Shown here piece after piece: positions 2-18,537 of a stretch of 20,000 nucleotides of DNA. The notes under the pieces were generated by a model. That model made no database searches. It was given only the letters and a program-made list of their open reading frames with translations, and was not told the DNA's origin. Each line of letters starts with the position of its first letter. Within the stretch, counting starts at the first letter, position 1. The DNA is from an uncultured virus (IMG/VR IMGVR_UViG_3300044613_002265) (Duplodnaviria > Heunggongvirae > Uroviricota > Caudoviricetes). Both the position numbers and the translations under genes were made by a program. The stretch is from IMG/VR virus record IMGVR_UViG_3300044613_002265. One strand, 5' to 3'.

Positions 2-1768
2 TTCCATGTACGGCGGGTCGCTCTTCTTTTCGAGGGCGGCCTTTGCCGCACCGATGATTCCTCCTGCGACGGCACCAACTCCGGCACCAGCGGCGCCACC
101 TGGGACGGCTCCGATCGCCGCCCCGATCGCCGCCCCTTTTGCTGCGCTGCTGGCTACGCCTGAGCCTCCAGTGTCTGGCCTGTCCTTCTTGGCGCCTTTT
201 TTGCCGCCCCCAGACTTTCCTCTTCCTTTGCTCCCGCCGCTGCCAGCGCTGCACGAGTTGTCGATTCCTCCGTCTGGGCCGGTCGCACAGAACGCCCGCT
301 CTTCGAGGAACTTCTTCGTCTTCGCCAACTCTTCGGCGACCTTAGCCTTGGTCTGGTTGCGGGAATCAGCGTGTCCAGACTTCTGGAACTGCTGATAACT
401 CCGCTTGGCTACTGCAACAGTGGCGTCGCCATAAGCAGGGTACGTGACCGGGCCGCAGTCCAGCAGTGACTTGATCCTGGTGACAAGTCTCGTTGACCGG
501 CCGTTCTCGTAACTCCACTTCTCGCCGCCTTCTGCCACGACGAAACTGAAACTTGAGCCACGCAAGTCTCCGCGAGAAATCGACTCGGCCAAATCAGCCC
601 GCGACTCTGGCAGCAGACACTCGTACCGAAGGCCCTTCTCGTCGACGGTCATCTTCATCGTCGTCGGAAAGCGGCCCAGGAGATGGTTTGGGTCGTGGTT
701 GAACAGGCAGCGAGTCTCTAGCGGCCTCCCCTCGCCGTCCTCGCGGCTCTCGACAAGCGAGAACGCACTCGGATCAATTCTCTCGACAAAGTCCCCGAGA
801 AGCAACGAATCTTTCCCAAAGCGGGCCGCGTACCCGATAACGTAGGTCTGCGGCTTGCCAGTGTTCGGATCAGCCCGCTTCTCGACTCGAAGCAAATCGG
901 GGTCGGCCTTCTCGACGTTACTGAAGTTGCCAAGAAACCGACGCTCGACGTTGGGCAGCACAGGGGCACTCCTTTGCTCTGATGAAAAATACCGCTCGAC
1001 AGCCTCTCGCAACTCCTCCGCGACGGGCTGGCGGTCTGGGTCTTCCTCGATTCGCTTCAGGCACTCCTCCTTCGGAGTGTCGACGTGGATGTACTCGACC
1101 GGAATGTCGGACAGTTGGCCCTTCATCTCGTCGCCGATGTTTGTGGTGATGATCCACGTCTTGTCGACTGTCGGCTTCCGGAGGGCCTTTTTGATGATAA
1201 GGGCTCTGATATCCGTACAATAAGAGATCAGGTTCTTGTTTTTCTGGTGCGGCGGCAGACCTGACAGGGCGCTCATCACCTTGTCGAAGTCGAAGATCAC
1301 GTCGTTGTCGCCTTTGTGCTGCATCACGTAGGACGTCTTGCCGCTGGCTGGGGCTCCGTGGACGACAAAGACGTTGGGCTTGATGCCCTGCGTCGAGCCG
1401 AATGGCCGCAGCGACCGCCCCTCCTTCTCGTCGGCGGCGTTCATCTGCTCGACGACCTTGCGAGCGTACGCCCGCCCCGCGTCGGAGCCCCACAGAGCCC
1501 ACGCGATTCGCCCGTTGGACGGGAAGCCATCGTCTCCTGGGTTCCAGCCCTCGCCCTTCTTGTCGATCTCGTGGCGATCAAAGAAGGCCTTCATTCGACG
1601 AACGGTGGATGGCGAGAGTTGCGTGCCGTTCGACAAGTCTCGCGCACGGGCAATGCCAACGGCCGTGCCGCCGCGTCCATGCTCACGCCGCCAGGCGAGG
1701 CCCTTCTCGGCCTCTTTGCGGACGCCGTCGGGCGGGGTGAAGTCGATGTGGGAGTATTTTTCAGGCAT
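2..1768 (-). CDS. HK97-family prohead protease polyprotein, 3' end beyond window: N-terminal phage domain + P-loop kinase/AAA-like domain + prohead protease + Cys-tag + glycine-zipper-like cargo
   Basis: Absent from the ORF track because it has no stop in the window. Read manually from ATG 1768 (overlapping the end of the giant ORF): MPEKYSHIDFTPPDGVRKEAEKGLAW...RIAWALWG; Walker A GAPASGKT (1334-1357); protease motifs GYAARF, LFNHD, GSSFSF, GPVTYPAY (~400-870); then RAFCATGPDGGIDNSC (Cys pair 251-289) and GAAIGAAIGAVPGGAAGAGVGAVAGGIIG. Confidence 0.88.
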   Translation of the reverse strand, partial: MPEKYSHIDFTPPDGVRKEAEKGLAWRREHGRGGTAVGIARARDLSNGTQLSPSTVRRMKAFFDRHEIDKKGEGWNPGDDGFPSNGRIAWALWGSDAGRAYARKVVEQMNAADEKEGRSLRPFGSTQGIKPNVFVVHGAPASGKTSYVMQHKGDNDVIFDFDKVMSALSGLPPHQKNKNLISYCTDIRALIIKKALRKPTVDKTWIITTNIGDEMKGQLSDIPVEYIHVDTPKEECLKRIEEDPDRQPVAEELREAVERYFSSEQRSAPVLPNVERRFLGNFSNVEKADPDLLRVEKRADPNTGKPQTYVIGYAARFGKDSLLLGDFVERIDPSAFSLVESREDGEGRPLETRCLFNHDPNHLLGRFPTTMKMTVDEKGLRYECLLPESRADLAESISRGDLRGSSFSFVVAEGGEKWSYENGRSTRLVTRIKSLLDCGPVTYPAYGDATVAVAKRSYQQFQKSGHADSRNQTKAKVAEELAKTKKFLEERAFCATGPDGGIDNSCSAGSGGSKGRGKSGGGKKGAKKDRPDTGGSGVASSAAKGAAIGAAIGAVPGGAAGAGVGAVAGGIIGAAKAALEKKSDPPYME

Positions 1769-4700
1769 CGTTCCACTCATAGTCGTCCAGTTCCCCGTCG
1801 TCCCAAATCTCGTTCCACATTTCGTCAAGCCGCAGCATGTCCTCGGGAGACAGCCACTCGTCGCCAGACCCGAGCGGCATTTCGCGACGATCGGTGCCGA
1901 ACTTCTTGATGAAGCGGTCCATGATCTTGGACTGCGGACTCGACCTGTCCGTGAGATCGAACTTCACGTCGAGGTCTTCTCCGTTGTCTCGCCACCAGCG
2001 GGTGCCGTCGGGCGTGGCGTGCAGATCGAGAAGAGACTTGGCGTGAGACAAGTCTGGCGGCAGTTTGGCCTTGATGCTCGACGGGAGTGGCGCGTCGAAG
2101 CCCATGCGGGGCCAGATCGTGTAGCCTCGCCACGGTGTCGACGTCAGGCTCCCCTTCGTGGCCGACGAGTTACCGGCCGCATTGAGGACGATGCGAGACA
2201 CGCCCGCTTTGTGTGCTGCCTCCACCGACGAGACCATGGCTCGATAGAACTCTCGGGCGGCGGCGTGCCGCTTCGCGTCGTCCTGCTTGATCGAGTCTGA
2301 CACGTTGACAGTGCTGTGATAGACGACAGTCTCGCCAGCCGCCGTGACGCCGATCACTGACGAGCCGTGCAGGCCGCTTTCGACCCCGGCGAAGTCCCGC
2401 TCGAAGGCGAACATCACAGGCGTGACTTTCGAGCCTGGGAACTCCACGGAGAAGTCTGGGGCAGGGCGGACGAACACGTCAGACTCGTCGCTGCCACCGG
2501 CGACCATGGGGGCCAACTTCGGGTCGACGCCAGCCGCATCCAGTGATGCCTTCACTGCTTTCGGCGATGAGATGTCGATCGAGCCGTACCGGCCGTCGCC
2601 AATCGGCGGCGGCGACGAGTCTCGGGAGGACGCGGGCCATGTTGCCGACTCGTTGCTCGACCACGTTCCGCTGGACGATGGAGGCGAGGCCGTGGCGGGT
2701 CCGCCGCTGCTGCCCTCGGCCGCGCAGTCGTTGCCGCTGCCGAATCGCCCGCCCTCGTCGCGGCCGCAGTCGGCCGACCGCTGCTCGGTCGCTGGCCGCA
2801 TCAGCCACGGCCGCACCTTGAGGTGCTGGTATCCGAGCGGCTCGTCGCCCTCGTCTTCGGCGTCGACGGCTCGGCGGGCCTTCCGGTTCCGCTTCGCCAA
2901 CTCTGCCTTGATGATCTCGGGGCCAATCTTCGAGGCGTAGGCGTTTTGGGCGGCGTAGTTGCCGGTCTTCTCGTACACGGCGTTCTGGCCGAACGTCTCA
3001 GCGAACAGGGCAGGCCACGCGCCTTCGGGAAGCGTCGAGGCATGGGTCAGCATGCCGTTGTACTCGCCGTTGGTTGAGAACGAGTAGCCGCCGCGAACGT
3101 GCGCGACCATGTCATGGACGACACGGAACAGGTCGTTGGCGATCATGGGCTCGCCATCGGCAGTCTTGTACTTCGTCTCGCGAAGCATCGGGTGGTCGGG
3201 CGTGGCCGAGCCAGTGCCGAATCCTCGCTCGGTCATAAAGAACGAGAACTCGCCGGTCTTGGCGACCTCTTCTCGCATCTTGTCCGAGTTTGGCTTCGTG
3301 CTGCCCGGCGGGTCGCCGTACGGTTCGCCTTCGCCTCTCCAGGCCCTGACCTTGAGCCCTGCCGCCACGAGGGCCTCGTACTGCCTGCCGATCTCGTCGA
3401 CGAGGTCGGCGTAGGACTTCTCGGCCTCTGGAGTCAGCGACGACCCAGAAGACGTCTGCTCGTCGGCGGCCGACGTGAGAATCTTTTCAGGCGGCGTGTC
3501 CGCGCGACCCTTTGCCCTGTCCCAGACAGACTTCGGATCGGGCGAGACGGAGTCGATGGCGTCGCGGAACTTATCGGAGCCGCGAGGGAAGGACTTGGGC
3601 AGCGACTCCTGCGTGCGGCCAGGCGAGCCTGCCGCAGGCGAGCCGTCGTCAGAGCCGCACGAGTTGTCGACCCCGCCGCCGTCGCCAGTGGGGCAGAAGG
3701 CCCTCTTCTGCTTGCGCTTCGACAGGTCAATGAAGTAGGCTTGGCTTCCGGCGTCTTGTGTCCCAACATGATCATCGCTCAGAAGGTGCGAGACATCGGA
3801 CTTCTTGATTCGTATGATCGCCGCTGGTGGCGGGTCGTCAGACGAGTGAAACAGATGTTCCTCGATCTTGCTCTTCCACGCCGCAAGCCCGCTCTTTTCT
3901 GTGAAGAACACCTTGCCTTTTGAGTAGTTCTCGTAGGCGCCGCCCTTGACTGTTGCCTTGGAGCCAAGCGGCCTTGAGAACCCGTCGGAAAGGATTTTCT
4001 TTGCGTTCTCTTCTGTCGTCACATGATAGATGTAGCCGTCGTCTTGATCTACGAACGACGGCTCTCCTCTGAACAGTTCCGCTGACTGCGCCTTGAGTTT
4101 TCCGTCGGTGGCGCTGCACGAGTTGTCGAGCCCGCCGCCGTCGCCCGTGGGGCAGAAGGCGCGAGACTCCTTGGCTCGCTTGGTCAGGAACTCGACCGCG
4201 AGGTCGGCGAACTCATCGTCGTCCATGCTCGCGATGAAGTCCGCGAACAGAGCCTGCTCGGGGCCGCCCTTCTGGTCGGAATACAGAGGCAGGCTCATCG
4301 GCTCGGCGATGACTCCGAGAGAACGCTTGCTCTCTCGCCGCCGCTTCTGGTAGTTCGCTGGCTCGGTGACGATCTTGCGGATCACTTCCGAGTAGAGCGA
4401 GGGCTCGCCTGGGACCGTGGTCGTGCGAGACCCAAGCGTGCCCCACGCATCCTGCTCGTCCTGCCACAGGATGTCCTGCATGTAGGCGACCGAGACTCCG
4501 GTTCTCTTGGCGGCTTCACGCATCGCGCGGATCATGTTCGCCCGCATGACAGACGTCGTAGGCGCCCGCATGACGTTGGCTTGGTTTTTCAGGATGGCAA
4601 CAGCCAAGCGATCCAGTTTGTATCGCTCGGCTGTGCCGGTTCCGTTTTTGGGATTCGGGAACTTGTCCTTCTTGTACTGCTTGTCTCTCGCCTCGGCCCA

Positions 4701-7700
4701 GTCTGCGATCTGCTGCGGAATGACGCCAGTCCTCTTCATCTGCGCGACGAGCGTCCGGAACTGCCTACCGTCCAAGCCCATCGCAGCGAGTTCTTTGCGG
4801 GGGATGTCCTTGGTCGACGCCATCAAGTCCGAGGCATGCTTCTTCGCGAGAGACTCCGAAGACTTGGACACCAACTCGCCTGAGAGCCTGCCCCACGTTC
4901 GCGTGAACCAGATGTCAGCGGTGAGGGCCTCATCGTCGCCGGTGTTGTTGGCGAAGAACGGGCCAACTTTAGGACCGAAGATGCTGAACGGCGGGACAAC
5001 TTCGGCGACGGCGTAGTCGTTCGCCTTGTAGCGATCGCCTTCGGTGCCAGGAACCTTCGAGAGGAAGAACTTCTCGAAGTCGCTGACCTTGATCGGCGGC
5101 CCGGTGAATATCCGGCGAGCCTCCTCAAGGCCGACGCGGTCGATGATCTTCTGGAGTCTCGCGAAGTCAGCGAGCGTGTTCTCGGCTCCGGCTCCGGCAA
5201 TGCGAATGCCGCTGCCGAGTTTCGCCTTGCTCGGGTCTGGCTCCTCGAAGAACGCCGTCAGCACGGCGTCCGCCCGGAGCATGTTCTCGTACGGGTTGGC
5301 TTCCGGTGAAGTCAAAGCCTGAGCGGCACGGAACAGAAACTCTGCCTGCGGCGAGATGCCTTCAGACGGCTCGCACTCTCCGTTGGGGCCCTCGACGCCG
5401 ACGCAGAATCCTGACGCTGTCCTGCCGCCTCGCATGAGCGGCTGAATCTTGGCGTACTCTTCGATCTGTGTCCGGCGGTCCTCTGGGCTGTAGAAGTTGG
5501 GCGAGACTCCGCGAGCCCGCGCGGACTCGACCTGGGACACGATGCCAGACACCATGTACTCGAAGTCATCTCCTTCGAGCGGCTTCGTAGTGTCGATGGT
5601 GCGGCCACGATGCTCGGCCTGCCTGGCGACGAGGTAGTTGCCGACCGAGATCGGGTCGATCTCGTCCTTGCCTGCAAGTCCACGCACTGGCGTGGCGCCT
5701 GGGACGGACGTGGAAAGAATCTTCTTGCCGTCGTCGCTCCGCTTGGTTGGGCTCTTCTCGACAGACTCCTTGAAGACGTCGACGTGGCTCGCGCCAGGCG
5801 TCCACTTGAGCGGCTCCTTGGCTGGCTCCTCAGACTTCTTCGCAGCGCGGGGTTTCTTCTCTTTTTCCTTCGACGGCGATCCGTCGCCCTTCGCGCAGTC
5901 ATTGCCCTTGGCGAACTGGCCGCTCTCGGTCTGCTCGCAGTCGTCGCGACGCTCGACGCCATCGTCGAACGCACTGCGAGTCTTGTTGCGTTCCTTCAGC
6001 CGGGCAAGCATCTTCTTCATTCGCTCGAAACGCTTGTAGCCAGCATTGGTCTGGTCGGTGAAGTCGAGCGTCAGTTCAATCGTCGTGCCGTTCTCGTTCC
6101 ACCAGCGATCGCCTTCGGGCGTGGCGATCAAGTCCTGAACGGTCATCTGGCCTGTGAGTGCCCTACGCTTCTGGTACGGCGTGAGTTTGATGTCCTCCTT
6201 GATGGCGTCGATGTCGGCCCTATCGAGTTCGCCATCGAAACCAAACTGCGGCCACAGCCGATATCCTTGCAGGGCACTGGTCGACGTTCCGGCGGCGATC
6301 GTGTCGGCCCGGATTGCTCCAGACTCCTCGGCGACAGAGAGCGACTCCGTCATTCGCTCCAACACGAGACTGACGATTCGACGCCTGTCGGCCGAGTCAT
6401 CTTCCAAGTCTCCGCTGATGGATGACATGGCGGCAGAATCCAGCGACATGCTGTCGTAGTTGACGACGAGATACCCGTCGTCGTCCTTCATCAGCGACAC
6501 CATGTTCTTGATGTTGCCAAGACGACCAGAGCCGTCCGGCGCAACTGGAATCGCGGAGTTGACGATAATGGAGTCGCCGAAGGCGTCGATTCCGACTGAT
6601 CCGCCCTGACGAACGCCGCCGCTGATTGCGACAACGTCCTTGACGCCTTTGACTCTCCCGAAGTCAGAGAGCGTGTCCTTCAGAGACTGGACATCGTTCA
6701 CGGAGAACGAATCGAGGACTTCGGCGCCCTTGAACGGCGGCGACGACGAAATGGCTTCCGCGTCCATGTCGACGCTCTCTTCGTCCTCCCACGACGAGCC
6801 ATCGCTGGCGCAGTCGTTGCCGCTTCCAAACCGGCCTCCATCGACCCGACCGCAGTCAGCCCCGGCCCTGAACTCAGCCTCTTCTTCGAGCCACTCGAAG
6901 AACGCCCGCGACTGATTTCGCTCCTTGAGCCTCTTGAGCCGCGACGTTTGTTTCTGGAACTTGGCGTAGCCGAGGCTCTTCTTGTCCGACAGGTCGAGAG
7001 TCATGCTCAGAGTTGTGCCGTTCTCGTTCCACCAGACGTCGCCTTCGTGGAATGAGACGAGGTGCTGCACGGTGATGTCGCTGTGAGGCAGGGCCGCGAC
7101 AAGGGCAGCGTGCGATGGCGTGATCCGCGTCGCAAAAAGATCGGGCCTCGCAGTCCGCATCAACTTCTCGACCACTGCCTGCGGGGCCTGGGAGAGCGAA
7201 TGCTTGCTGCTCTTGTCGAGCATGGCATCGAATCCAAACTGCGGCCACAGGCGATATCCCTTGAGTTCATACTCGGGGCCGCCAGCGGCACTCATCTTGA
7301 CCTTCGAGATTCCTGTCTTTTCGACGCTGGCGATCGCCTCGATAACAGCCTGCTGCATAAGGCTAGTGGCTTTTGCGACCCTCTCGCGAGTGGCAGTCGC
7401 AGCCTTGTCTGGGTACATGCCGTTGAAGCCAAGCACATACTCTCCGTCGTCCCGATACACAGCGACGTTGACGTCAAATTGGCCTTCCGAATCACTGCCA
7501 TCGCGGGCAAGCGGGATTTCGTTATCAATGGTGATGAAGGCGCCGGTGCCGTCGTTGCCGCCTGACGCTCCAAAGAACGTCACCTTACTCCCGCGAATTG
7601 TCGCGCCGCTCATGGCAGCGAGTTCGTCGAGCGACTTGATGCCAGCGTCAGACATTCCATCCGCAAGTCCCTGCGGGTTTGGAATAGCGACGCTTCCTGC

Positions 7701-8909
7701 TTTGTCTGCACCTGTGAATGGCGGCTTGTCTTTGAGCCCATCGCCAGAGATAGATAGAGACGACTTCGACTCCTTCCACGAGTCGTCCGCCTTGGCGGGA
7801 GCCGCAGAAGACTGGCCGCCTGGGCTGCACGTATTGTCGATGCCGCCGCCTTCGCCTGTTGGGCAGTAGGCACGCAACTCAGCCCAGTCGCCATCAAGCA
7901 GGGCTCTAGCCTCGGCGTCAAAGAAGGCGTCAGTCAAGTCCAGGCCTCGCTTCGAGAACCTGTCACGCAGGGACTTGAATCGCTTCCAGCCAGGATCGCT
8001 GTTGCTGCCGACGGCGAGCGACATCTCCATCTCGCCGCCGTTCTCTTCCCACCACTCCTGGCCCTCCTTGGTCTCGTACAGAGACTGGATCGTCAAGGCT
8101 CCTGCGGCCTTCTCTTTGCGAGCGCGAGGCGAGAGAATCTTGTCTGGGATGCCGCTGCCGTAGGAGTTGAAGAACCCAGTTGCGAGCGACCATGTGGGCG
8201 TGACATGCCTGCGTGGAATCACGCCGTTGAAGCCGAGCCTCGGCCAGATGCGATAGCCCTTGAAGTCAGAGTTCTTGCCGCTATCACCGGCGGCCAGCAT
8301 CTCGACCCTGTCGACGCCGATCTTCTCAGCCTGCGTAATGCTTGCGATCGCGCCCTTCATCATGTGACGAGCGACGGCGACGCTGGCTTTCTGCTTGGCC
8401 TCGTCGCTGATCATCAGCATCGTGTAGGACATGACGAGTCCGTCTTCTTCGGTCCTCGTCAGCGATGCGGCAGTCCGAGCAGCGCCCTCGATGCCAGCCA
8501 CGGGCATCTCGCTCGTGAACGTCACGGTGTCTTCGATGTACCGCTCCGGGTCATCGCTTCCCATGAACTCGATGATCTCAAGCAGCCCGCCGTGGGATAT
8601 CGTGACCTGGGCCTCCGGGTCGAGGGCCGCGCATGCTCTGGCCGCTTGATCAAGCGTGACGCCGACCTCGCGGAGCGACTTGTTGACCAGTTCGCCGTCC
8701 ATGATGACGACTGCCTTCACGCCAGCGAGCGACTTGGCCGGAGGAGACTGCTTCAGGTCATCACCGGCAATGCGAACTGGTCCCTGCTCCCGCTTCCACG
8801 AGTTGTCGGTCCTTGCTCCGCTGCCGTCCTGCGACGAGCAGTCGTTCTTGACGCCGCCGCCGTCGCCGGTGGGGCAGAATGCCCGGTACTCTTCTTCCAG
8901 AAAAATCAC
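1761..8909 (-). CDS. Giant (~2382 aa) multidomain polyvalent-type protein between portal and protease: 4 paralogous GNAT-like domains, a glycosylase-like domain, an ADP-ribosyltransferase-like domain and a metallopeptidase-like domain, each introduced by a Cys-tag
   Basis: Uninterrupted 2406-codon ORF. The likely start is GTG 8909, which overlaps the portal stop (GTGA). Seven C-x11-C or C-x13-C tags divide it into modules, and GY(R/T)(I/L)WP(R/Q)xGF...WWx(E/D)NG occurs four times. Confidence 0.85.
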   Translation of the reverse strand: MIFLEEEYRAFCPTGDGGGVKNDCSSQDGSGARTDNSWKREQGPVRIAGDDLKQSPPAKSLAGVKAVVIMDGELVNKSLREVGVTLDQAARACAALDPEAQVTISHGGLLEIIEFMGSDDPERYIEDTVTFTSEMPVAGIEGAARTAASLTRTEEDGLVMSYTMLMISDEAKQKASVAVARHMMKGAIASITQAEKIGVDRVEMLAAGDSGKNSDFKGYRIWPRLGFNGVIPRRHVTPTWSLATGFFNSYGSGIPDKILSPRARKEKAAGALTIQSLYETKEGQEWWEENGGEMEMSLAVGSNSDPGWKRFKSLRDRFSKRGLDLTDAFFDAEARALLDGDWAELRAYCPTGEGGGIDNTCSPGGQSSAAPAKADDSWKESKSSLSISGDGLKDKPPFTGADKAGSVAIPNPQGLADGMSDAGIKSLDELAAMSGATIRGSKVTFFGASGGNDGTGAFITIDNEIPLARDGSDSEGQFDVNVAVYRDDGEYVLGFNGMYPDKAATATRERVAKATSLMQQAVIEAIASVEKTGISKVKMSAAGGPEYELKGYRLWPQFGFDAMLDKSSKHSLSQAPQAVVEKLMRTARPDLFATRITPSHAALVAALPHSDITVQHLVSFHEGDVWWNENGTTLSMTLDLSDKKSLGYAKFQKQTSRLKRLKERNQSRAFFEWLEEEAEFRAGADCGRVDGGRFGSGNDCASDGSSWEDEESVDMDAEAISSSPPFKGAEVLDSFSVNDVQSLKDTLSDFGRVKGVKDVVAISGGVRQGGSVGIDAFGDSIIVNSAIPVAPDGSGRLGNIKNMVSLMKDDDGYLVVNYDSMSLDSAAMSSISGDLEDDSADRRRIVSLVLERMTESLSVAEESGAIRADTIAAGTSTSALQGYRLWPQFGFDGELDRADIDAIKEDIKLTPYQKRRALTGQMTVQDLIATPEGDRWWNENGTTIELTLDFTDQTNAGYKRFERMKKMLARLKERNKTRSAFDDGVERRDDCEQTESGQFAKGNDCAKGDGSPSKEKEKKPRAAKKSEEPAKEPLKWTPGASHVDVFKESVEKSPTKRSDDGKKILSTSVPGATPVRGLAGKDEIDPISVGNYLVARQAEHRGRTIDTTKPLEGDDFEYMVSGIVSQVESARARGVSPNFYSPEDRRTQIEEYAKIQPLMRGGRTASGFCVGVEGPNGECEPSEGISPQAEFLFRAAQALTSPEANPYENMLRADAVLTAFFEEPDPSKAKLGSGIRIAGAGAENTLADFARLQKIIDRVGLEEARRIFTGPPIKVSDFEKFFLSKVPGTEGDRYKANDYAVAEVVPPFSIFGPKVGPFFANNTGDDEALTADIWFTRTWGRLSGELVSKSSESLAKKHASDLMASTKDIPRKELAAMGLDGRQFRTLVAQMKRTGVIPQQIADWAEARDKQYKKDKFPNPKNGTGTAERYKLDRLAVAILKNQANVMRAPTTSVMRANMIRAMREAAKRTGVSVAYMQDILWQDEQDAWGTLGSRTTTVPGEPSLYSEVIRKIVTEPANYQKRRRESKRSLGVIAEPMSLPLYSDQKGGPEQALFADFIASMDDDEFADLAVEFLTKRAKESRAFCPTGDGGGLDNSCSATDGKLKAQSAELFRGEPSFVDQDDGYIYHVTTEENAKKILSDGFSRPLGSKATVKGGAYENYSKGKVFFTEKSGLAAWKSKIEEHLFHSSDDPPPAAIIRIKKSDVSHLLSDDHVGTQDAGSQAYFIDLSKRKQKRAFCPTGDGGGVDNSCGSDDGSPAAGSPGRTQESLPKSFPRGSDKFRDAIDSVSPDPKSVWDRAKGRADTPPEKILTSAADEQTSSGSSLTPEAEKSYADLVDEIGRQYEALVAAGLKVRAWRGEGEPYGDPPGSTKPNSDKMREEVAKTGEFSFFMTERGFGTGSATPDHPMLRETKYKTADGEPMIANDLFRVVHDMVAHVRGGYSFSTNGEYNGMLTHASTLPEGAWPALFAETFGQNAVYEKTGNYAAQNAYASKIGPEIIKAELAKRNRKARRAVDAEDEGDEPLGYQHLKVRPWLMRPATEQRSADCGRDEGGRFGSGNDCAAEGSSGGPATASPPSSSGTWSSNESATWPASSRDSSPPPIGDGRYGSIDISSPKAVKASLDAAGVDPKLAPMVAGGSDESDVFVRPAPDFSVEFPGSKVTPVMFAFERDFAGVESGLHGSSVIGVTAAGETVVYHSTVNVSDSIKQDDAKRHAAAREFYRAMVSSVEAAHKAGVSRIVLNAAGNSSATKGSLTSTPWRGYTIWPRMGFDAPLPSSIKAKLPPDLSHAKSLLDLHATPDGTRWWRDNGEDLDVKFDLTDRSSPQSKIMDRFIKKFGTDRREMPLGSGDEWLSPEDMLRLDEMWNEIWDDGELDDYEWNDA

Positions 8910-11900
8910 GTCGAAAACTTTCCGTTCGTTACCGAAGAGAGAAGCCGCATCACGTCGTCGCCGTACTCTTTCCCGGCCCACAGGCCAGCCAGGACTTCAG
9001 CAACGAACTCGCGGTGGCTCGTGGCGGCGTAGCGAGAAACGCTCTTGGCGACGTCGCGGTTCTCGGCGTCAAACGAGAGCGACGCCGATGCGTCGTACGA
9101 CTCGGCGTCTGCCACGGCATGATGCCGATGAGCCAGTTCGTGCAGGAGCGGATTGGGCTGCGAGAGCCAGCCCCTCGCTGCTGCGAGCCGGAACGAGGCA
9201 ACGGCCTCGTCATTCAGAGAGTCGGACACGTAGATCGCGTCCGTGTCGAGGTCGTACTCAACTACCGAGCGAGACTCGGTAGTTGGCCTGAATACGATGC
9301 TCGGGAGATCAGCCTCGCCAGACTGCTTCAGTTCTTCGACGAGGGCGTCTGCTGCTTGGCGGCCTTCTCGGCCATGATCTTCTCGCGAGCCGCCTCTATG
9401 GCCGCCGCGATCTCTTCCGCCTTCGCTCCCGTCGGAAAGTCGAACCGCACGAGTTTCGCCTTTGCCTTTGGTTCGTCTGCCACTGTAGTCGCCCTTTCTG
9501 ATTTCTTTCTTCTCGTTCAAGTCCCAGATCGCGAGTTGATTGGTCGACTCAGCCGCATCAATGGCGTCGTCGATGTCATCAAATCGCTCCGACAGGTCAA
9601 GGTACACTTGGTTGGATTCGGAATCAATCCAGCCGCCGATGTGAAGTGTAGGCCTCTCCTCGAACTTAGACTTGTTTTCTTTCAAGAACTTGTCGATCAC
9701 CGGCCCTGTGACTTTTTGGGCTGATGGAACAATGGTCTCTGACTCTGGCGCAACCGAGACCATGTAACCAGACGTCGGACTTGACTCTGACACTGGATGA
9801 ATTGAGAACCCTCCAGTCTCGGCCATAGACTTGATCGCCATTTCTGCGATCCGGTCAGACTTGGAGCCGCCTTCGCCGTCGGCTGCGCAATTGTTTCCAG
9901 GCCCAAACAGTCCGCCGTCGACTCTCCCGCAGTCTTCCGCCCGCTGCTCCAGCCCCCACGAGTTGTCATCCAGAGACCTGTACTGCTCGCTGGCGTACCG
10001 CTCGCCGTACTTCGGCGTTCGCACGAAGACCGTGTTGCCAATGCTGACAGAGTCGGTGCCGCCGGTGACTTCACGCCCGGTCCTCTTGTCGTAGAAGTAC
10101 GCGGCTTTCTTCGGGTTGTAGCCGACCGCCGTCCAGTCGTTGATGTCCTCTGGAACCTCGCGGCTCGGCTTGAACTTGCCGACGACCGTCGCAAGCGGAG
10201 TCTTTGAGCGGCCCATTGCGATCGCTGTGGCCGTCGGCTCGTGCGAGACGAACGTCACGTCTCCAGACAATGTCACGATCGAGTCGAATCCAATGACCTT
10301 GCCGACGCCGTTCTTGGACTTCGCCTTGCTGTGGACCGTGACGGCGTACGTGTCCTTTTTCTCGTAGGCTGGAATGTCGATTCGCAGGGCGACGGGAGTT
10401 CCTTCAGCAAGTTCGCGGTGCGATCCGACGAGTTCTCGCTTGGGAATCTCCTGGCCGTCGATCTTTACGTTTCCAGACAATGCAAGGCGAATCGCGTCGT
10501 CGCTTGCCATCGGGATGCTGTCAGAGTTCTTGGACGACTCTGCGACGGGCTTGAAGTCCACCTTGGCGGCGAGCCGCTCGTCGTTTGCGGCGATCGGGCC
10601 CTTGATGGCATTGGCCTCCCTGGAGAGGCGATTGTCCCTGGCCTTGGCGGTCTCCGTCGTGCTGCCGCACGAGTTGTCGATCCCGCCGCCTTCGCCCGTG
10701 GGGCAGTACGCCCGCTGCTGCTTGCCCTTCTTGGCGATCCGTCCGCCAGTCTTGAGGACGGCGTCGTCGCGATGAACAGAGACTGGATACCGTTTGCCGC
10801 GATTGTAGAGACGATCGCTAATCTTGTCGGGGAACGCGGGCTTCGCGAGCGACTCGATCTGTGACGCCTGCTCTCGCGAGAGCGTCTTGCCGATGGGGAC
10901 AATGCCCGCGCCGTTGTAGCCCATCTCCACGTAGAAGATGTCCTTGCCAGATGAGTCGCGGACTCTGATGCCGATCTTGTCGCCGGTGACTTTGGCTGAC
11001 GATCGCCCAGGCTTGCCGCCGAGTTGTCGCACCAAGTCCTTGATGCGTCGCTCAGACGTGCCCATCTGGTAGAGTTTCTTGGCAGCGCGAGACTGCTTCT
11101 TATCGCCCTCGCCGCGACGGAAACCGCGAACGGGCTCGCCGTCGTCGCTGCTGCCAGCGCACTTGTTGCCGTCCTTGAAGCCGCCAGCGCCCGTCCCGCA
11201 GTCGCGAGACTCTGGCATGCTGAGTTTTTCTTCGGGAATGATCCACAGTTTGCAGATCGCGTTGGGCGAGATGATGCCCTTGACGATCTCGCAGGAGCCG
11301 CCCTCTTCGTAGTAGATGCAGTTCCGGCAGGCGATGCCGCGAGACGCGAAAGGGTTCTTCTCCATGTAGTGGGCGCCGCTTGGGCCTTGCTGGGGCCAGC
11401 GTCCACTCTTCTTGACGATCTCTTCCTGGGCGTCGTACAGGGCCTGATTCTGCTGCGAGAGGGCCCGCTTCTCTTGGATCGGCTTGAGTTGCGAGACCTT
11501 GATGCCCGCTTCCTCGCCGGTCTCTTCGTCGACGACAAGGGCCACGGGCTCGCCTGGCTGGACTTCGATCTTCTCGCCAGACTTGAGGTCGAGCGTGCCC
11601 TGCTCCATGACGTGCTTGACGCGGCCGGTCTTGCCTTCGCCGTAAGAAACAAGCATGCCTTCTTCTTTCGGCTTCGACTGCTCACCCTTCTCGGCCGGGT
11701 TCGGAGCCTTGCCCGTCTTGACTTCAGGCAGGCTCGGGACGCCGCCTTGGGCTGGCGGCGGCGGGGCTCCTGGGCCGCCCATCATTGCCGGGTCGGGCTT
11801 CGGCTTGACTGCCTCGTCGATCGTCTGCATGTTCATGCCGACGAAGTGCTTGTCGCCGTTTTCGAGCGGCGGAAGGTTCTCAAGTCGACGGCAGTCGTTG

Positions 11901-13036
11901 ATCGAAAAAATCCCGAGGTTCGTCATCGTGGAGTAGTAGCCCGCGCGAGAGTTGGAGTCCCCTCGCATCAGTCCACGCACGTCGAACTCGGCGACGAACA
12001 GGTCGTCGTTGTAGATCAGCGACCGAGAGATCGCGCTCTCGATGCGTCGCAGCCATGGCACCAGCGTGTAGGTGACGAAGTCCTGGCCCTCGATCTCCGG
12101 GTTGCCGCCAGGCTGGCCCTGCACGAGCCGGAGGGGCAACCGATAGACCCTCGCGATCTCCTCGGACTGGAAGCGGCGTGTCGACTCGAACTGCGACTGC
12201 TCGGCCGTGAAGCCGACGGGCTCGACTTTGAGTCCGTTCGTGAGGATCGCGGTCTTGTACGCCCGGTCGACGCCGCGATGGAGTCGCTCCCAATTATCTC
12301 GCAGCCGCTCGGCGGCCTCGGGCGAGAGCGAGCCGTCGGTCTGTAGCACCATGCCGGGCCGGGCTGAGTTCGCCCAGAACTTGGCGGCGTGAATCTCGCA
12401 CGCCCTGGCGAGGGCGATCGACTCGCGTGCGACTTCGACTGGGACCATGCCCTTGATGCCGTCGGGCTCGGCGGTCCACCGGACGTGCATGATCTGGTCT
12501 TGCGTGTACGGCTCTAGTCTTCCGTTCTCCGGATTCGTGTACATGTAGCGGAGGCGGCCGTTTTCGAGCCGCTCCACGTCCATGCGAGACGGGTGGAGGT
12601 TGAGCAACTCCGAGACAGCGCCGTACCGGCCGCTCTTGATCTGCGTGTAGGAGTTCCCCCACAGGCAGAGGTTCATCACCATCTGCTCGAAGAACTCGAA
12701 CTTGGTCTGCCAGGAGTTGGGAGCGAACGACAAGACTCGATACAGCGGAATATCGCGGGCGATGTCTTTGCTGCCGTCTTCCCCTCGCCGGTAGACGTGT
12801 AGGGGAAGGGAACTGATCGTCTCGGCCAAGATGCGGCAGCACGCCAGCACCACGGTCGACTGGAGGGCTGTCTCAGGCGTGACGCGAACTTCGGCCTCAG
12901 TCCGCCACCGGCCGCCGTAGGTCTCTTCAGACAGCAGGAAATTGTTCCACGAGATGCCACGAATCTCGGGCTCGGACAGCCCGCGTGCGGGTGTCCAGAC
13001 AATGTCGGACAAGGCTCTGTTTTCGGAGTCGCTCAC
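8906..13036 (-). CDS. HK97-family portal protein with a ~950-aa C-terminal multidomain extension
   Basis: The first ~410 aa carry HK97-portal hallmarks (ALQSTVVLACCRILAETISSLPLHVY, APNSWQTKFEF, LWGNSY, EIARVYRLP, TLVPWLRRIESAI, SINDCRRLENLPPLENGD), and the gene follows terL. GTG 13036 has an upstream AAGGGGG RBS. The extension has a Pro-rich linker, a 4-Cys domain, three Cys-tags and a C-terminal HELAH. Confidence 0.92.
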   Translation of the reverse strand: MSDSENRALSDIVWTPARGLSEPEIRGISWNNFLLSEETYGGRWRTEAEVRVTPETALQSTVVLACCRILAETISSLPLHVYRRGEDGSKDIARDIPLYRVLSFAPNSWQTKFEFFEQMVMNLCLWGNSYTQIKSGRYGAVSELLNLHPSRMDVERLENGRLRYMYTNPENGRLEPYTQDQIMHVRWTAEPDGIKGMVPVEVARESIALARACEIHAAKFWANSARPGMVLQTDGSLSPEAAERLRDNWERLHRGVDRAYKTAILTNGLKVEPVGFTAEQSQFESTRRFQSEEIARVYRLPLRLVQGQPGGNPEIEGQDFVTYTLVPWLRRIESAISRSLIYNDDLFVAEFDVRGLMRGDSNSRAGYYSTMTNLGIFSINDCRRLENLPPLENGDKHFVGMNMQTIDEAVKPKPDPAMMGGPGAPPPPAQGGVPSLPEVKTGKAPNPAEKGEQSKPKEEGMLVSYGEGKTGRVKHVMEQGTLDLKSGEKIEVQPGEPVALVVDEETGEEAGIKVSQLKPIQEKRALSQQNQALYDAQEEIVKKSGRWPQQGPSGAHYMEKNPFASRGIACRNCIYYEEGGSCEIVKGIISPNAICKLWIIPEEKLSMPESRDCGTGAGGFKDGNKCAGSSDDGEPVRGFRRGEGDKKQSRAAKKLYQMGTSERRIKDLVRQLGGKPGRSSAKVTGDKIGIRVRDSSGKDIFYVEMGYNGAGIVPIGKTLSREQASQIESLAKPAFPDKISDRLYNRGKRYPVSVHRDDAVLKTGGRIAKKGKQQRAYCPTGEGGGIDNSCGSTTETAKARDNRLSREANAIKGPIAANDERLAAKVDFKPVAESSKNSDSIPMASDDAIRLALSGNVKIDGQEIPKRELVGSHRELAEGTPVALRIDIPAYEKKDTYAVTVHSKAKSKNGVGKVIGFDSIVTLSGDVTFVSHEPTATAIAMGRSKTPLATVVGKFKPSREVPEDINDWTAVGYNPKKAAYFYDKRTGREVTGGTDSVSIGNTVFVRTPKYGERYASEQYRSLDDNSWGLEQRAEDCGRVDGGLFGPGNNCAADGEGGSKSDRIAEMAIKSMAETGGFSIHPVSESSPTSGYMVSVAPESETIVPSAQKVTGPVIDKFLKENKSKFEERPTLHIGGWIDSESNQVYLDLSERFDDIDDAIDAAESTNQLAIWDLNEKKEIRKGDYSGRRTKGKGETRAVRLSDGSEGGRDRGGHRGGSREDHGREGRQAADALVEELKQSGEADLPSIVFRPTTESRSVVEYDLDTDAIYVSDSLNDEAVASFRLAAARGWLSQPNPLLHELAHRHHAVADAESYDASASLSFDAENRDVAKSVSRYAATSHREFVAEVLAGLWAGKEYGDDVMRLLSSVTNGKFST

Positions 13037-13085
13037 TGTGCCCCCTTGCACTCATTGATCGTCATCGACCCGCGATGGAACAAGT

Positions 13086-14753
13086 TCACAGCAAGATGAT
13101 CTCCGGATCGGCCATCTTCGGAGCAGCCTCGGCATCGCTGGCAAGTGCGAGAGCCATGACGAGCGCGATCATGCCGTCCACTCGGGCTGGACTCATGGCC
13201 GCTGGCTTGGCGATCTTGATGTAGCCATCGGCGTTGGTCTTTATCGTGCAATTTCCGGCCATCCAGTTCAGGATCGGATTGTCATTCGTCCGCAGGCGTC
13301 CCTGCGAGATCAGCCCGTCGAGCGCGCGGGTCGGCGCGTTCATGGCCGAAAAGTTCTGGGAGAAGCCTATCACGTCCAATCCTTCGGCCTGAAGTTGTTG
13401 GACGAGGTAATGCGAGTTGTATGGGTCGGTGGCGATCCGCCTGACCGTCCGCTCCTTGGCGAACTTCAGGATGTCCCGCTTGATGAACTCGTAGTCGCAT
13501 GTGTCGCCGGGAGTCAGCGTCAGGCCGGTCTTCGGGTCTTTAGCCCACTGGATGTACGGCACCTCTTCGCGGCGAGTGTCGGCGTTGTCGGCTGGAATCC
13601 AGAACTTGCAGATCACGTCGAACACGTCGTCGTGGGCCTTCGAGACCGCCACGAAAGCGTTGACGTCCCAGGTCTGAGCAAGATCGAGCCCGCCATACCA
13701 GACCCGCGACGAATCGAGCAGGCCGGAGTGGCCCTTGCACTGCTCCCACTGAGTCAGATTCACGAACTTCTCGGTGCCCGCCACCCAGACGTTGAGCCGA
13801 TAACGCAAGAATGACGAGAGCCGGGAGGGCGACTGCTCGGCCTCGCGGACGTCCGCCTTGAAACTCTCCTCGTCCATGGTCACGCCGAACGACGGATTCG
13901 CAGCCCGCCAGACTTCCGGGTCTCGGTAGTCATCTTCAGCGGTGGCCGCCGCGATGTAGGCGAAGTACTGGGGGTCGAGACTTGGGTCTTGCATGACCTT
14001 GAGGGCATGCTCGTGCTGCTCGTAGCAGATCGACGATCGGTCGTAGCCAGCCGTGGTAATCGCCAGGACGAGGCTTTGGCTACGGGAAATGCCGCCGTAG
14101 CGGATCGCGTCCCAGAGTTTTCTGTCCTTGGCTGAGTGCAACTCGTCGTAGCAGAGCGAGTGGATGTTGAGGCCTTCCGCTCGGTGGCTGTCGCTGGAAA
14201 TGACCCGCCAGAACGAGTTCGTCGGAACGCAGGCGATCGTTTTGCGGGAGTCGACGATCTCCAGCCGCTTGGACAGGTAGGGGCTGGAGCGGACAAGTTC
14301 CGCCATCTGCTTGTAGACAATGCCTGCTTGGTCGCGGGACGTGGCCGCGCCGAAGCACTCAGCGGCTGGCTCGGAGTCAGCCACAGTCATATAGAGCGAG
14401 ATGCCCGAGAGAAGAGTCGATTTGCCGTGTGACGACCTTGGCCCCCGTGGCTACCACGCCACAGGGGCCAAGGCGCCATTTTTTTTGGGCACCTCGATGT
14501 AGCCGACCCGGAACCTACGCTGGTCGTTGTCGACCCGCATCCAGCCGAAGAGTTCCTCGATCACCTCGTCTTTCTGCCAGGGCAGGAGGGTGAACGGCTT
14601 TCCGGCGAACTGACCCTTGGAGTGGATCAGAAAGTTCTCGAAGAAGCCGACGGCGTGAGCCGCCTTGGCCTCGTCGAAGTAGTAGTCGTAGCCGAGACTA
14701 AGCGCCTCGGCTTTTGATATACGCTTCCAGCGGGTCTTCTTGGGCAGCGGCAT
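13086..14753 (-). CDS. terL: Terminase large subunit (Terminase_1 family), interrupted by an in-frame TAG inside a 51-nt insertion in Walker A
   Basis: ORFs 14451-14753 and 13086-14390 share a frame. Motifs: HSKGQFAGKPFTLLPWQ, YIEVPKKNG...KSTLLSG (Walker A), CYDELH (Walker B), ITTAG, GGLDLA, DPYN, RVDGMIALVMA. Removing 14424-14474 gives an intact ~538-aa TerL. Confidence 0.93.
14424..14477 (-). other. Hairpin insertion in terL, candidate translational bypass (ribosome hop) element
   Basis: mRNA reads AAT GGC [GCCTTGGCCCCTGTGGC GTGGTA GCCACGGGGGCCAAGG TCGTCACAC GGC] AAA TCG. The 16-bp stem (14436-14451/14458-14473) has one G-U pair, the in-frame TAG is at 14451-14453, and matching GGC codons lie at 14475-14477 and 14424-14426. 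Confidence 0.65.
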
Positions 14754-15489: not shown

Positions 15490-15750
15490 TTCAAGTCTTT
15501 CCCTATATAGGAGACAAAACCCTATTATCATTCGAGCCTGACTCGCGTTTTTGACTCTTTGGTACTTGAAGACTTCTACTTTTGAATTGAGACTCCTAGG
15601 ATTTCCCTATATGGGGACTGGAAAAATGAAGTCCCCAAGTACCAATCTCTCAGGAGGCTCTCATTTGAGATATGAGGGCTGATTTTATTTCTGGCCCCTG
15701 GATAGCCTATCCAGACAAGTGGCCCTCAGAGAGCAAGCCAGGGGCCTCTA
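15490..15750. promoter_or_regulatory. AT-rich intergenic region with direct and inverted repeats
   Basis: TTTCCCTATAT occurs twice (15498-15508, 15602-15612). Inverted repeats: TTGGTACTTG/CAAGTACCAA (15559-15568/15636-15645) and GGGGACT/AGTCCCC (15613-15619/15630-15636). Palindrome CTGGATAG-C-CTATCCAG (15698-15714). Confidence 0.45.
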
Positions 15751-16044
15751 TTGAAGCCTGGCATCCTCATGTACCTTCTTGGCATTGCAGCGGGCACACA
15801 GGCACTGGAGATTCTCCATGGAGTCAGGCCCGCCCAGCCTCTTGGGCACAATGTGATCGCAGTGGGCCTCTTTGGGATCAGAGCAGACCCTGCGGCAGGC
15901 CCGGCACTGCCAGTTGTCCCTGAGCAGCACCTTCAGCCGGAGGCTCTCCCAGGCTTTGCCGCCATAGCCTCGCCGGAAGGCGCTGACCCGCGTGGGCCTC
16001 TTTCGGCCCCGCGTGGGCTTGAAGAAAGGGAATCGCTCTGGCAC
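15748..16044 (-). CDS. HNH endonuclease (HK97 gp74-like terminase cofactor)
   Basis: RRGYG..W..LR..VL.RD.WQCRAC...CDHIVPKRLGGPDSMENLQCLCARCNAKK; adjacent to terS. Start inferred at GTG 16044, just after the upstream stop. Confidence 0.9.
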   Translation of the reverse strand: MPERFPFFKPTRGRKRPTRVSAFRRGYGGKAWESLRLKVLLRDNWQCRACRRVCSDPKEAHCDHIVPKRLGGPDSMENLQCLCARCNAKKVHEDARLQ

Positions 16045-16048
16045 TGGA

Positions 16049-16402
16049 TCAGAACATCCTGGGAGTGACTTTTCCAGCGCGGACAGTCTTGGTGATGGTT
16101 CCTGGGGCGATCCATCGCAGGCTCCATCTGTAGTTTTCATTTGGGCTCATGTAGCCAGTCTGACTCTCGTTCAGAGTCAGACTGAGCCTGCCCTGTGAAA
16201 GGTCAATAGGCGATTGGGTGAAGGTGCCCAGCATCTCCCAGCCAATCATGTCTCCGTTGGCCGAAAAGGCCGTGGCCCTGAAGAGGGTTGCATGAAGAGT
16301 GTATCCAGTTACATTCAGCCCTAGATTTACCTCGAAGGTGAACTCGTCGCCAATCACGAACTCAAGATCAACCGTCTCGGGAAGTGAAGAGATCGTCGCC
16401 AC
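16049..16402 (-). CDS. Hypothetical beta-rich protein, possibly virion-associated Ig-like fold
   Basis: 117-aa ORF with a strong AAGGAGG RBS and an alternating beta-strand pattern (GDEFTFEVNL..., GRLSLTL..SQT...YRWSLRW...VRAGKV). The function is a guess. Confidence 0.7.
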   Translation of the reverse strand: MATISSLPETVDLEFVIGDEFTFEVNLGLNVTGYTLHATLFRATAFSANGDMIGWEMLGTFTQSPIDLSQGRLSLTLNESQTGYMSPNENYRWSLRWIAPGTITKTVRAGKVTPRMF

Positions 16403-16458: not shown

Positions 16459-16872
16459 CTAAGTAAGCCACCCACCATCCGCGTCATAATTCGGCCGCTC
16501 GGCGTCGAGCAGCATTCGCCTCTCGTCCCGCAGCCCAGCGATCTCTTTGCGTTGCAAGCGAATCTCGCGACGAAGTGACTCGTTGATCGCGAGCAGATGC
16601 TCAATCGTCGATGCGGCCTCCAGGCAAAGCCCGCCCTTTTCTCGAAGCCTGTCGGCGATCTCGGTCCCAGCAGGAGGATGATTCTCGTCGTAGACGACGA
16701 GCCTCGTGTAGCCGCCATTTGCCGCGCCGAAGTCATGCTCTTCGAGCCACGCCGCGAGTGGATCGGTGCCGTCCCGCAGGGTCCAGCAGTGCGACCCGGT
16801 GTATCCCTTGGCGAGCAGAATCTCCTCGCCGGTCTCGGTGTCGCGAAGATAGAGCCTGTTGTTCGCCATCAC
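16459..16872 (-). CDS. Hypothetical protein with C-terminal coiled coil
   Basis: Start overlaps the upstream stop, with an AAGGAGGAG RBS; contains EIADRLRE...LEAASTIEHL. Confidence 0.75.
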   Translation of the reverse strand: MMANNRLYLRDTETGEEILLAKGYTGSHCWTLRDGTDPLAAWLEEHDFGAANGGYTRLVVYDENHPPAGTEIADRLREKGGLCLEAASTIEHLLAINESLRREIRLQRKEIAGLRDERRMLLDAERPNYDADGGWLT

Positions 16873-17174
16873 TCCTCCTTCACGAAGACGCCCTCGGGCG
16901 TGAGATGCCCGCGACGATCTTTGATGGTCCGGTACGCCGACTCCAGGCTGTGGCGAAGAGTCAAGCCAGAGAGTTGGGCGTAGATGATCAGCGTCACCAG
17001 CACGTCCCCAAGGCCGTCGATCTTGCCTTCGAGGTCGCTCTTGAGGGTCGCGTCGGCGAGTTCGCCGAGTTCGCTCATGGTCTTCATTAGTTGAGCCTGG
17101 GGCGTGCTGTTCGGCACGATCTTCCGAGCCGCAGCCCAGTCTTCGACAGCGAGGATCAGTTCGTCAAGCGTCAT
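16869..17174 (-). CDS. MazG-like nucleotide pyrophosphohydrolase
   Basis: WAAARKI...QLMKTMSELGELADA...IDGLGDVLVTLII...LESAYRTIKDRRG...GVFVKE matches the phage MazG-like family pattern. Confidence 0.88.
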   Translation of the reverse strand: MTLDELILAVEDWAAARKIVPNSTPQAQLMKTMSELGELADATLKSDLEGKIDGLGDVLVTLIIYAQLSGLTLRHSLESAYRTIKDRRGHLTPEGVFVKEE

Positions 17175-18253: not shown

Positions 18254-18537
18254 TCTGCCTCCGGCTTTCTGTGCTGGCACGGGCAGTCAGGGTGGTGGCA
18301 GAACGCCGCCGGGACTGTCGCCGAAGCCGCCGCCATGACCCACCAGTGATCGTCATGCTTGACGGTCGTGAGCAGCCAAGTCCCAGGCGGCTGGCTTGGC
18401 CCCGCCGCCTTTCCTGCCACATGTCCCCGTGCCGTCTGGATTGCTGGCAGCAGCAGGGCAATGAGCGTGGCGATGATCGCCAGCACTACAAGGGCCTCCA
18501 CGAGTGTGTAGGCCTTGTGTTTTGATTTCCTACGCAT
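18250..18537 (-). CDS. Prepilin-type N-terminal cleavage/methylation domain mini-protein
   Basis: MRRKSKHKA|YTLVEALVVLAIIATLIALLLPAIQTAR has a basic leader, Glu at +5, a hydrophobic helix and an LLLPAxQxAR ending like Planctomycetota DUF1559 proteins. The C-terminus is short and ends CHHPDCPC. Confidence 0.8.
   Translation of the reverse strand: MRRKSKHKAYTLVEALVVLAIIATLIALLLPAIQTARGHVAGKAAGPSQPPGTWLLTTVKHDDHWWVMAAASATVPAAFCHHPDCPCQHRKPEAE

Follow-up and report, generated by a model that had tools for sequence, protein, structure and literature searches.

In phage T4, the prohead protease makes a single cut to remove the capsid targeting sequence (CTS), an N-terminal peptide of ~10 amino acids (aa) that carries whatever protein is fused to it into the head (excerpts of bioRxiv 10.1101/2021.01.19.427310); the internal proteins IPI-III and Alt bear it, according to excerpts of a review (PMC3012670). 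In the giant phages phiKZ and SPN3US, the prohead protease processes ejection and inner-body proteins: before the DNA is packaged, it cuts many proteins of the head interior at a short recurrent motif (passages of PMC7411985 and PMC5694885). Polyvalent proteins, as introduced in portions of Iyer et al. 2017 (PMC5512222), are multi-domain proteins of the portal-terminase block, with MuF and portal fusions, that are predicted to be packaged and injected. Only for a few model phages is it known in detail how the non-structural proteins that enter the head, and then the next host, are chosen. Here we analysed 20,000 nucleotides (nt) of an uncultured virus of the Caudoviricetes (IMG/VR record IMGVR_UViG_3300044613_002265), hereafter called the window, in which a short cysteine-flanked peptide, the tag, recurs eleven times in the portal, in a giant protein and in the prohead protease. 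The original prediction, made from this sequence, took the tag for a cargo label on each module of these proteins, an interpretation that our follow-up partly supports: tentatively, and with a little less than an even chance of being right, we read the tag as a portable cargo and processing signal, similar in kind to the T4 CTS, that stands ahead of each accessory module in the head-assembly block.

A six-frame regular-expression scan of the window for both of the tag patterns originally distinguished (type I and type II, with one hybrid) recovered all eleven copies where they had been placed; all are on the minus strand, the original prediction having given no strand, and in frame in three adjacent genes. 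The strict patterns had no matches in the other frames of the window, and a looser pattern (C-x11-13-C plus GG) added three extra, unrelated strings. Written as DNA patterns, type I matched six times and type II four times, against 0.00 expected, and 0/200 dinucleotide shuffles had any match; the motif is real. In all eleven copies an Arg lies 2-5 residues ahead of the first Cys, a low-complexity stretch rich in Gly, Ser or Asp follows the tag, and the copies differ from one another by synonymous codons, each as originally described. The gene identities claimed for the carriers also held, with Pfam matches to Phage_portal (aa 67-392 of the portal fusion, E 3e-93) and Peptidase_S78 (aa 325-483 of the protease open reading frame (ORF), E 2.5e-29). 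The copies are listed here with their length class and their place in the protein.

251..289, minus strand: tag of the 13-residue class (CATGPDGGIDNSC), protease fusion, behind the protease domain
2724..2768, minus strand: tag of the 15-residue class, giant, ahead of GNAT-like module 4
3657..3695, minus strand: tag of the 13-residue class, giant, ahead of the phrog_3170-like module
4116..4154, minus strand: tag of the 13-residue class, giant, ahead of the ~135-aa module
5895..5939, minus strand: tag of the 15-residue class, giant, ahead of the DUF7178-like module
6810..6854, minus strand: tag of the 15-residue class, giant, ahead of GNAT-like module 3
7827..7865, minus strand: tag of the 13-residue class, giant, ahead of GNAT-like module 2
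8838..8876, minus strand: tag of the 13-residue class, N-terminus of the giant, residues 12-24 from the GTG start
9887..9931, minus strand: tag of the 15-residue class, portal fusion, ahead of the HExxH-bearing last module
10667..10705, minus strand: tag of the 13-residue class, portal fusion, ahead of the L5 gp82-like module
11159..11200, minus strand: tag of the 14-residue class (the earlier 'hybrid'), portal fusion, first tag

Aligned, these copies share an invariant Cys, Gly, Asn and Cys, which argues that the eleven motifs are one family with three length classes (13, 14 and 15 residues); the two types first proposed thus stand as motifs and fall as separate kinds. The supposed hybrid at 11159-11200 is likewise a real motif and not a one-off, since its 14-residue class recurs in other phages (for example, with three copies in protein P0093): among the tags of 123 proteins, 276 have 13 residues, 123 have 15 and 14 have 14. 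The full unit runs from an amphipathic helix through E-x-R-[A/G]-[F/Y/W], E-S-R-x-x-D or E-S-R-[D/N] into a Gly-rich Cys-x11-13-Cys loop that ends in N-x-C, and then into a flexible linker rich in Gly and Ser. Consensus sequences were built from 261, 116 and 12 unique copies outside the window for the 13-, 15- and 14-residue classes, respectively, and read E-S-R-A-F-C-P-T-G-E-G-G-G-[V/I]-D-N-S-C-[G/S], E-S-R-S-A-D-C-G-R-D-E-[D/G]-G-[K/R]-F-G-x-G-N-x-C-[A/Q] and E-S-R-[D/N]-C-G-T-G-A-G-G-F-[Q/K]-x-G-N-[T/K]-C-A, each with about ten Gly/Ser-rich residues behind the loop.

An AlphaFold2 model of the protease fusion built with 16 sequences has a helix at residues 467-490, up to the Arg, with tag and linker at a predicted local distance difference test (pLDDT) score under 50, and a model built with 145 tag segments again shows a helix followed by coil. 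This course, with its low pLDDT, suggests that the tag behaves as a short linear motif and not as a small folded domain. Nor does it resemble a zinc knuckle or ribbon, for which four ligands and a confident fold would be expected: each tag has two Cys, no His is conserved, and the coil has a pLDDT of at most ~63. Among 168 distinct viral DNA copies, each fixed residue is encoded by 2-6 codons, and the free positions of the pattern still encode only F/Y/W, I/V/L, D/K/E or S/D/T, a combination which argues that selection acts on the tag peptide.

We next considered where tags lie within proteins. The original prediction had placed them at domain edges, and indeed none of 141 tags overlapped any of 63 Pfam stretches in 44 mapped proteins; neighbouring tags are at least 108 residues apart (median 292, n=492). 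The most informative result is their polarity. The first tag lies no more than 60 residues from the protein start in 97 of 206 proteins, with leaders down to 3-14 residues, and fewer than 60 residues follow the last tag in only 2/206 (median 325). Complete relatives of 49, 55 and 70 kb have separate single-module genes of ~300-1,000 aa between portal and protease, each of which starts with a leader of ~30 residues, E-x-R-A-F and the loop; one encodes an Ntox46 domain, and in two the loop is degenerate and 11 residues long, with the first Cys-Pro and the final D-N-S-C preserved. The tag thus stands at the N-terminus of the module that follows it, as had been proposed. An 88%-identical relative of the giant has two additional cassettes of tag plus module, the window's giant ending three residues past the point where the relative continues and the relative's next tag coming seven residues later. 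Together, the N-terminal tags, the rarity of terminal ones and the extra cassettes of the relative argue that the tag belongs to the module behind it, requiring none in front, and that tag and module are gained and lost as a unit. As separators, N-terminal tags with tiny leaders make no sense.

To see how widely the tag occurs, profiles were searched at protein level and patterns at DNA level. A profile of the eleven copies gave 213 matches at E<=1 among 8,000 scored candidates, and the tag profile found 597 representative proteins at E<=1e-3 in a library of 1.84 billion proteins (187 at <=1e-10 and 19 at <=1e-30), each with 2-10 matched stretches; single-tag proteins cannot reach the profile thresholds, and the count of 597 therefore over-represents polyproteins. 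For the 13-residue class, a degenerate DNA pattern matched at least 220 IMG/VR stretches, grouped on one strand per contig, as opposed to three stretches in 596 Gb of bacterial and archaeal genomes, on two contigs of metagenome-assembled genomes (3.4 and 1.2 kb). This difference argues that the tag is virus-specific and would be rare or absent in integrated prophages of sequenced species.

The proteins that carry the tag are of the kinds that the original prediction expected. In a Pfam scan of 40 representatives, 12 had Phage_Mu_F, five a portal domain (one of them lambda-type) and two Peptidase_S78, nine had only ART, Zeta-toxin or DUF domains, 12 had no match, and none had a cellular housekeeping family; 30 further matches and 12 protease fusions were alike in domain content. 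The hidden Markov model scan, which had been proposed as a check, accordingly led to portal, MuF and S78 fusions or to effector-type proteins. With 19/40 representatives carrying MuF, portal or S78, the tag is restricted to virus head-module proteins, and the modules downstream of it vary in domain content, both as foreseen. S78 is encoded in 21/21 tag-bearing viral records (5/5 and 16/16), including complete genomes of 49, 55, 70 and 93 kb, records that are mutually related, share a homologous capsid gene and do not amount to 21 independent observations. The carriers appear to belong to a large group of uncultured phages with an HK97-type portal, an S78 protease and capsid genes. In a tblastn search of 50,697 phage records for cultured relatives, with portal fusion and giant as queries, only the portal domain and one module (aa ~1826-2017) were matched and no tagged relative came up, a result in which the low-complexity filter of BLAST may hide tags. 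PF04233 (MuF) was found in 0/5 related records, and MuF as a hidden carrier in the giant was rejected; module 4 of the giant resembles DUF7178-type viral proteins.

If the tag is a portable cargo and processing signal, it would mark the module behind it as prohead-internal cargo, as the T4 CTS does, in a version extended to polyproteins. On carrier-less proteins such as the giant, the tag alone would provide entry; where a module is already fused to portal, MuF or protease, it would be redundant as an address and would mainly define the place of the S78 cut. After assembly, the co-encoded S78 prohead protease would separate the modules at the conserved E-x-R segment, and the freed modules inside the head would leave with the DNA. 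Encapsidation, cleavage, the enzyme that cleaves, ejection and any chemistry of the cysteines are predictions of this scheme. As to cleavage, [E/Q/D]-x-R stands ahead of 383/597 internal tags (64%) compared to 4/15 tags with leaders of at most 15 residues, a bias that fits a role at the end of the upstream module. Within protease fusions, tags separate S78, 0-2 inserted modules and a conserved C-terminal domain of ~110 aa, and several of these fusions end in a helix resembling the one ahead of the tag. Complex predictions of the S78 domain with a 40-aa tag peptide scored under the mark in both runs, an outcome that speaks neither for nor against such cleavage. We regard as doubtful the further step that the cysteine pair is a reversible tether, by a disulfide or a shared metal, to tags on the portal, on the protease or on each other, with release in the reducing cytoplasm of the host; if true, one 25-residue cassette would confer loading, retention and timed release on any effector, in hundreds of lineages.

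Several observations weigh against the tag as a cargo and processing signal. Neither a serine-protease site nor a targeting helix explains the two invariant Cys and the Asn, and AlphaFold2 predicts the loop with low confidence (pLDDT below 50 with 16 sequences, about 61-63 with 145). The capsid protein of the relatives has a long delta domain and no tag and is presumably cut, and S78 therefore does not need the tag to cut. Directly ahead of the first Cys, one class has F/Y/W whereas the others have D/N, so that one specificity pocket would be unfit if the cut were made at that bond. Internal tags on carrier-fused modules would need no address. Two junctions in the window lack a tag, namely that between the N-terminal domains and the protease and that between the portal and its first extension, and two tag-bearing proteins (P0202 and P0061) have lambda-type portals. 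All tag-bearing relatives are uncultured contigs. Homology to the T4 CTS was rejected, the Q-[E/D]-F-[ILVM] helix being present in 9/245 copies of one lineage, all but one of them at a single position in protease fusions. The idea that the tag class labels a particular module family was also abandoned, as the association is weak: the same-class fraction was 0.56 when only the downstream flanks of a pair were similar, 0.50 when only the upstream flanks were and 0.44 when neither were.

These results bear equally on what else the tag might be. Were it purely a processing site, that is, a polyprotein cleavage motif for S78 or for a zincin-like module with no targeting, one would expect tags between domains with a flexible linker, tags within the protease's own polyprotein, as in protease-scaffold fusions, and S78 in every tag-bearing record, all of which is seen. 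This explanation is nevertheless unlikely, given that so many proteins open with a tag (97/206, leaders down to 3-14 residues), that single-module genes carry it, that trimming a few residues separates nothing, that tags are almost never found at a protein end and that the capsid protein is presumably cut without one. The zincin-like module at the C-terminus of the portal was also rejected as the universal processing enzyme, being fully matched in one of five records, partly in two and absent in two, one of which is a 96%-complete genome. Quite unlikely, in our judgement, is a metal or redox clasp, in which a disulfide closing the loop in the extracellular virion, or a metal ion shared with a second tag, would tether or lock modules until the reducing cytoplasm of the host is reached, or would link carrier-less cargo to the tags of portal and protease. 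It would account for the C, N and C that are invariant in all three classes, for the fact that one phage can have tags on the carriers portal, protease and MuF as well as on proteins without a carrier, and for a loop that AlphaFold2 leaves without a fold, as one would predict for a loop in need of a partner or cofactor. Yet each tag offers two ligands only, a standard Zn site is impossible from two Cys alone, and the number of tags per protein is often odd. A Zn bridge from the tag to a C-x-C in the delta domain of the capsid protein was considered and dropped as a general mechanism: this C-x-C is present in three relatives of ~95 kb and absent from three other tag-bearing lineages.

The tag as an ejection handle, whose loop and linker engage the channel of portal or tail, or else the end of the DNA, and so give the modules an ordered exit, agrees with the N-terminal polarity, with a need for one tag on every module whatever its route into the head and with the tags on the portal's own C-terminal extensions; it leaves the conserved E-x-R and the cysteines unexplained, and we hold it to be improbable. 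Tags of different genes also match in DNA, at 72-79% identity over 53-65 nt (G001:C1:11782-11834 and two other places), a likeness that by its extent should suffice for occasional homologous recombination of cassettes. Along with the gain and loss of cassettes at tags, and with a same-class fraction of tag pairs that is 0.66 within a protein versus 0.44 between proteins, it would suit a recombination junction that acts at the DNA level to promote cassette shuffling and whose peptide has no function. The selection on the peptide (2-6 codons per fixed residue, restricted free positions) disfavours this view, which we consider very improbable. Scarcely credible, finally, is the idea that the peptide processes itself by intein-like Cys...Asn-x-Cys chemistry or is modified to form a ring of the lanthipeptide kind. 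It would be in keeping with the invariant Cys, Asn and Cys, and one tag segment had a weak NCBIfam match to FxLD lanthipeptide precursors (TIGR04363, 14.9 bits, cut-off 30). Both forms were rejected: a HINT fold (~130 aa or more) is too large for a loop of 13-15 residues, the Asn lies two positions ahead of the second Cys and not adjacent to it, the 15-residue class has no conserved Ser or Thr, the lanthipeptide score is below cut-off, and no Lan-type enzyme is matched among the window's annotated ORFs.

The long genes of the window all lie on the minus strand, in the order (right to left) small terminase, large terminase, portal fusion, giant and prohead-protease fusion, the last three of which carry the tags.

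8906..13051, minus strand: portal fusion protein, 1,381 aa, identified by Pfam and PHROG portal families and by translation
1761..8909, minus strand: giant polyvalent protein, ~2,382 aa from the GTG at 8909; longest ORF 1761..8981
2..1768, minus strand: prohead-protease fusion gene, truncated by the window's left end; longest ORF 2..1828

These three head genes are translationally coupled through overlapping starts and stops: the giant's GTG at 8909 overlaps the portal TGA, which leaves a leader of 11 residues ahead of the first Cys, as also found in database proteins P0124, P0125 and P0005, and the protease ATG at 1768 overlaps the TGA of the giant gene. Extra modules number four in the portal fusion, and the protease fusion has two extra N-terminal domains. 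The portal fusion consists of the portal domain, a Cys-rich extension and then three tags, each with a module behind it, namely a 145-aa module without known family, an L5 gp82-like module (Pfam Phage_L5_gp82, aa 909-998) and one ending in HExxH. This last motif (aa 1304-1308; window 9128-9142, minus strand) suggests a zincin-like peptidase, as has been proposed for polyvalent proteins. In the first extension, upstream of the first tag, a C-x2-C-x9-C-x12-C stretch (aa ~575-600; window 11252-11329, minus strand) may form a small zinc-binding element with no relation to the tags.

The giant has seven tags and seven modules of at least four kinds, and no Pfam match at E<=0.01. Four paralogous GNAT-like modules of ~300 aa each (7881-8837, 6870-7826, 5958-6809 and 1764-2723, minus strand) have 24-27% mutual identity, as compared via a relative, and the motif G-Y-R-x-W-P-x-x-G-F; some of their homologues are named GNAT acetyltransferases by the Joint Genome Institute, and DUF5824 matches relatives. 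The others are a DUF7178-like module of ~575 aa, a ~135-aa module with a weak ART-like hint and a phrog_3170-like module.

The protease fusion comprises an N-terminal domain, an AAA_33 kinase-like domain (Pfam, aa 153-276), the S78 protease, a helix, the tag, a glycine-zipper-like stretch and the start of the C-terminal domain. Its S78 domain scores 103 bits against PF04586 (cut-off 21) and 57.5 bits against TIGR01543, slightly below the equivalog cut-off of 59. Homologues continue from the last tag into the conserved ~110-aa domain, at the first residues of which the window's ORF ends. The linker behind the protease tag passes into a Gly/Ala-rich, hydrophobic stretch resembling a glycine zipper (window 2-250, minus strand), which may be a membrane-active piece; Pfam Gly-zipper_YMGG matches relative P0206 at the equivalent place. 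Similar stretches lie behind the tags of a further tagged protein of 600-700 aa that, in relatives, is encoded between the protease and the capsid gene (L231:13740-15848, L232:6777-8825, L233:14452-16314) and opens with a helix and a tag of the 15-residue class. The window genome probably has this protein too, just beyond the left end, which the nearest record (G001) does not reach.

Upstream of the tagged genes, the large terminase is split within its Walker A motif (…PKKNG / GKST…) at about 14423-14470 of the window, minus strand, between the ORFs 14451-14753 and 13086-14390. The insert is 48 nt long, lies between two Gly codons and contains a 17-bp hairpin with an in-frame TAG in the loop; its removal restores the canonical motif. 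Records of relatives have it in 5/5 cases, as do 34 IMG/VR stretches that represent 25 distinct variants; its length ranges over 44-48 nt, and three pairs of the hairpin show compensatory changes. The frame downstream of the insert is 0 in seven variants, all with an internal stop, +2 in 17 and +1 in one, and therefore none of the variants (0/25) can be read by standard decoding. Rfam gave nothing above chance for the insert, and a fixed -1 frameshift at the run of eight A ahead of it fails in variants with a stop just before GKST. The insert has the look of programmed translational bypassing, as in T4 gene 60, or of a very small excised element. Further along on the minus strand (15748-16140, 16869-17174 and 18530-19087), an HNH endonuclease adjoins the terminase genes, and the head block is preceded upstream by a MazG-like pyrophosphatase and a phosphoesterase.

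For phage biology, the value of the tag lies in its being a sequence-defined and easily recognised signal on hundreds of portal, MuF and protease fusions and on free-standing effector-like proteins. It could list the injected arsenal of uncultured phages straight from sequence, it defines module boundaries in giant proteins without database matches, and it is a short cassette whose use as a packaging and release tag for foreign proteins can be tested in HK97-type capsids. Should the cysteines prove to be chemically active, this would be a new principle in capsid cargo handling.

Set beside the systems already described, the tag shares one trait or another with each of them. The cleavage motifs of phiKZ and SPN3US are three-residue sites that end in Glu and are cut by a T4-type protease, whereas the motif reported here has 20-25 residues with two cysteines and occurs in S78-type phages. 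In herpesvirus and HK97-type protease-scaffold fusions, the protease is joined to a C-terminal part that interacts with the capsid, and it cuts itself free at defined sites, an arrangement similar to the separation by tags of S78, inserted modules and conserved C-terminal domain; those fusions have no cargo modules and no cysteine loop. The cargo-loading peptide of encapsulins is short, has a Gly/Ser-rich linker and targets varied cargo into an HK97-fold shell; it is C-terminal, has no cysteines and serves non-viral compartments. By their domain make-up, the tag-bearing proteins are best classed with the polyvalent proteins described by Iyer et al. 2017: each polypeptide combines several unrelated domains, terminase, portal fusion, giant and protease form a block, relatives are MuF or portal fusions, and the domains ART, GNAT, 2H and zincin are shared with those in the portions of that paper that list them. 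They differ in the tag itself, as the main text (PMC5512222) proposes zincin-like peptidases for processing, describes no cysteine motif, linker or Gly-rich junction, and has 0 occurrences of cysteine, Cys, linker, glycine, low-complexity or disordered. No relevant paper was found for the tag motif strings within the limits of the literature search, in which they turned up in just two papers on parechoviruses that have no connection with the tag, and we treat the motif as undescribed. As for the T4 CTS, it has no cysteine loop, does not recur within polyproteins and acts together with a T4-type protease and a scaffold core. What the two have in common is a short N-terminal leader on diverse non-structural proteins, the tag being N-terminal on its cargo (at most 60 aa from the start in 97/206 proteins) and the giant having a leader of 11 residues ahead of its first loop.

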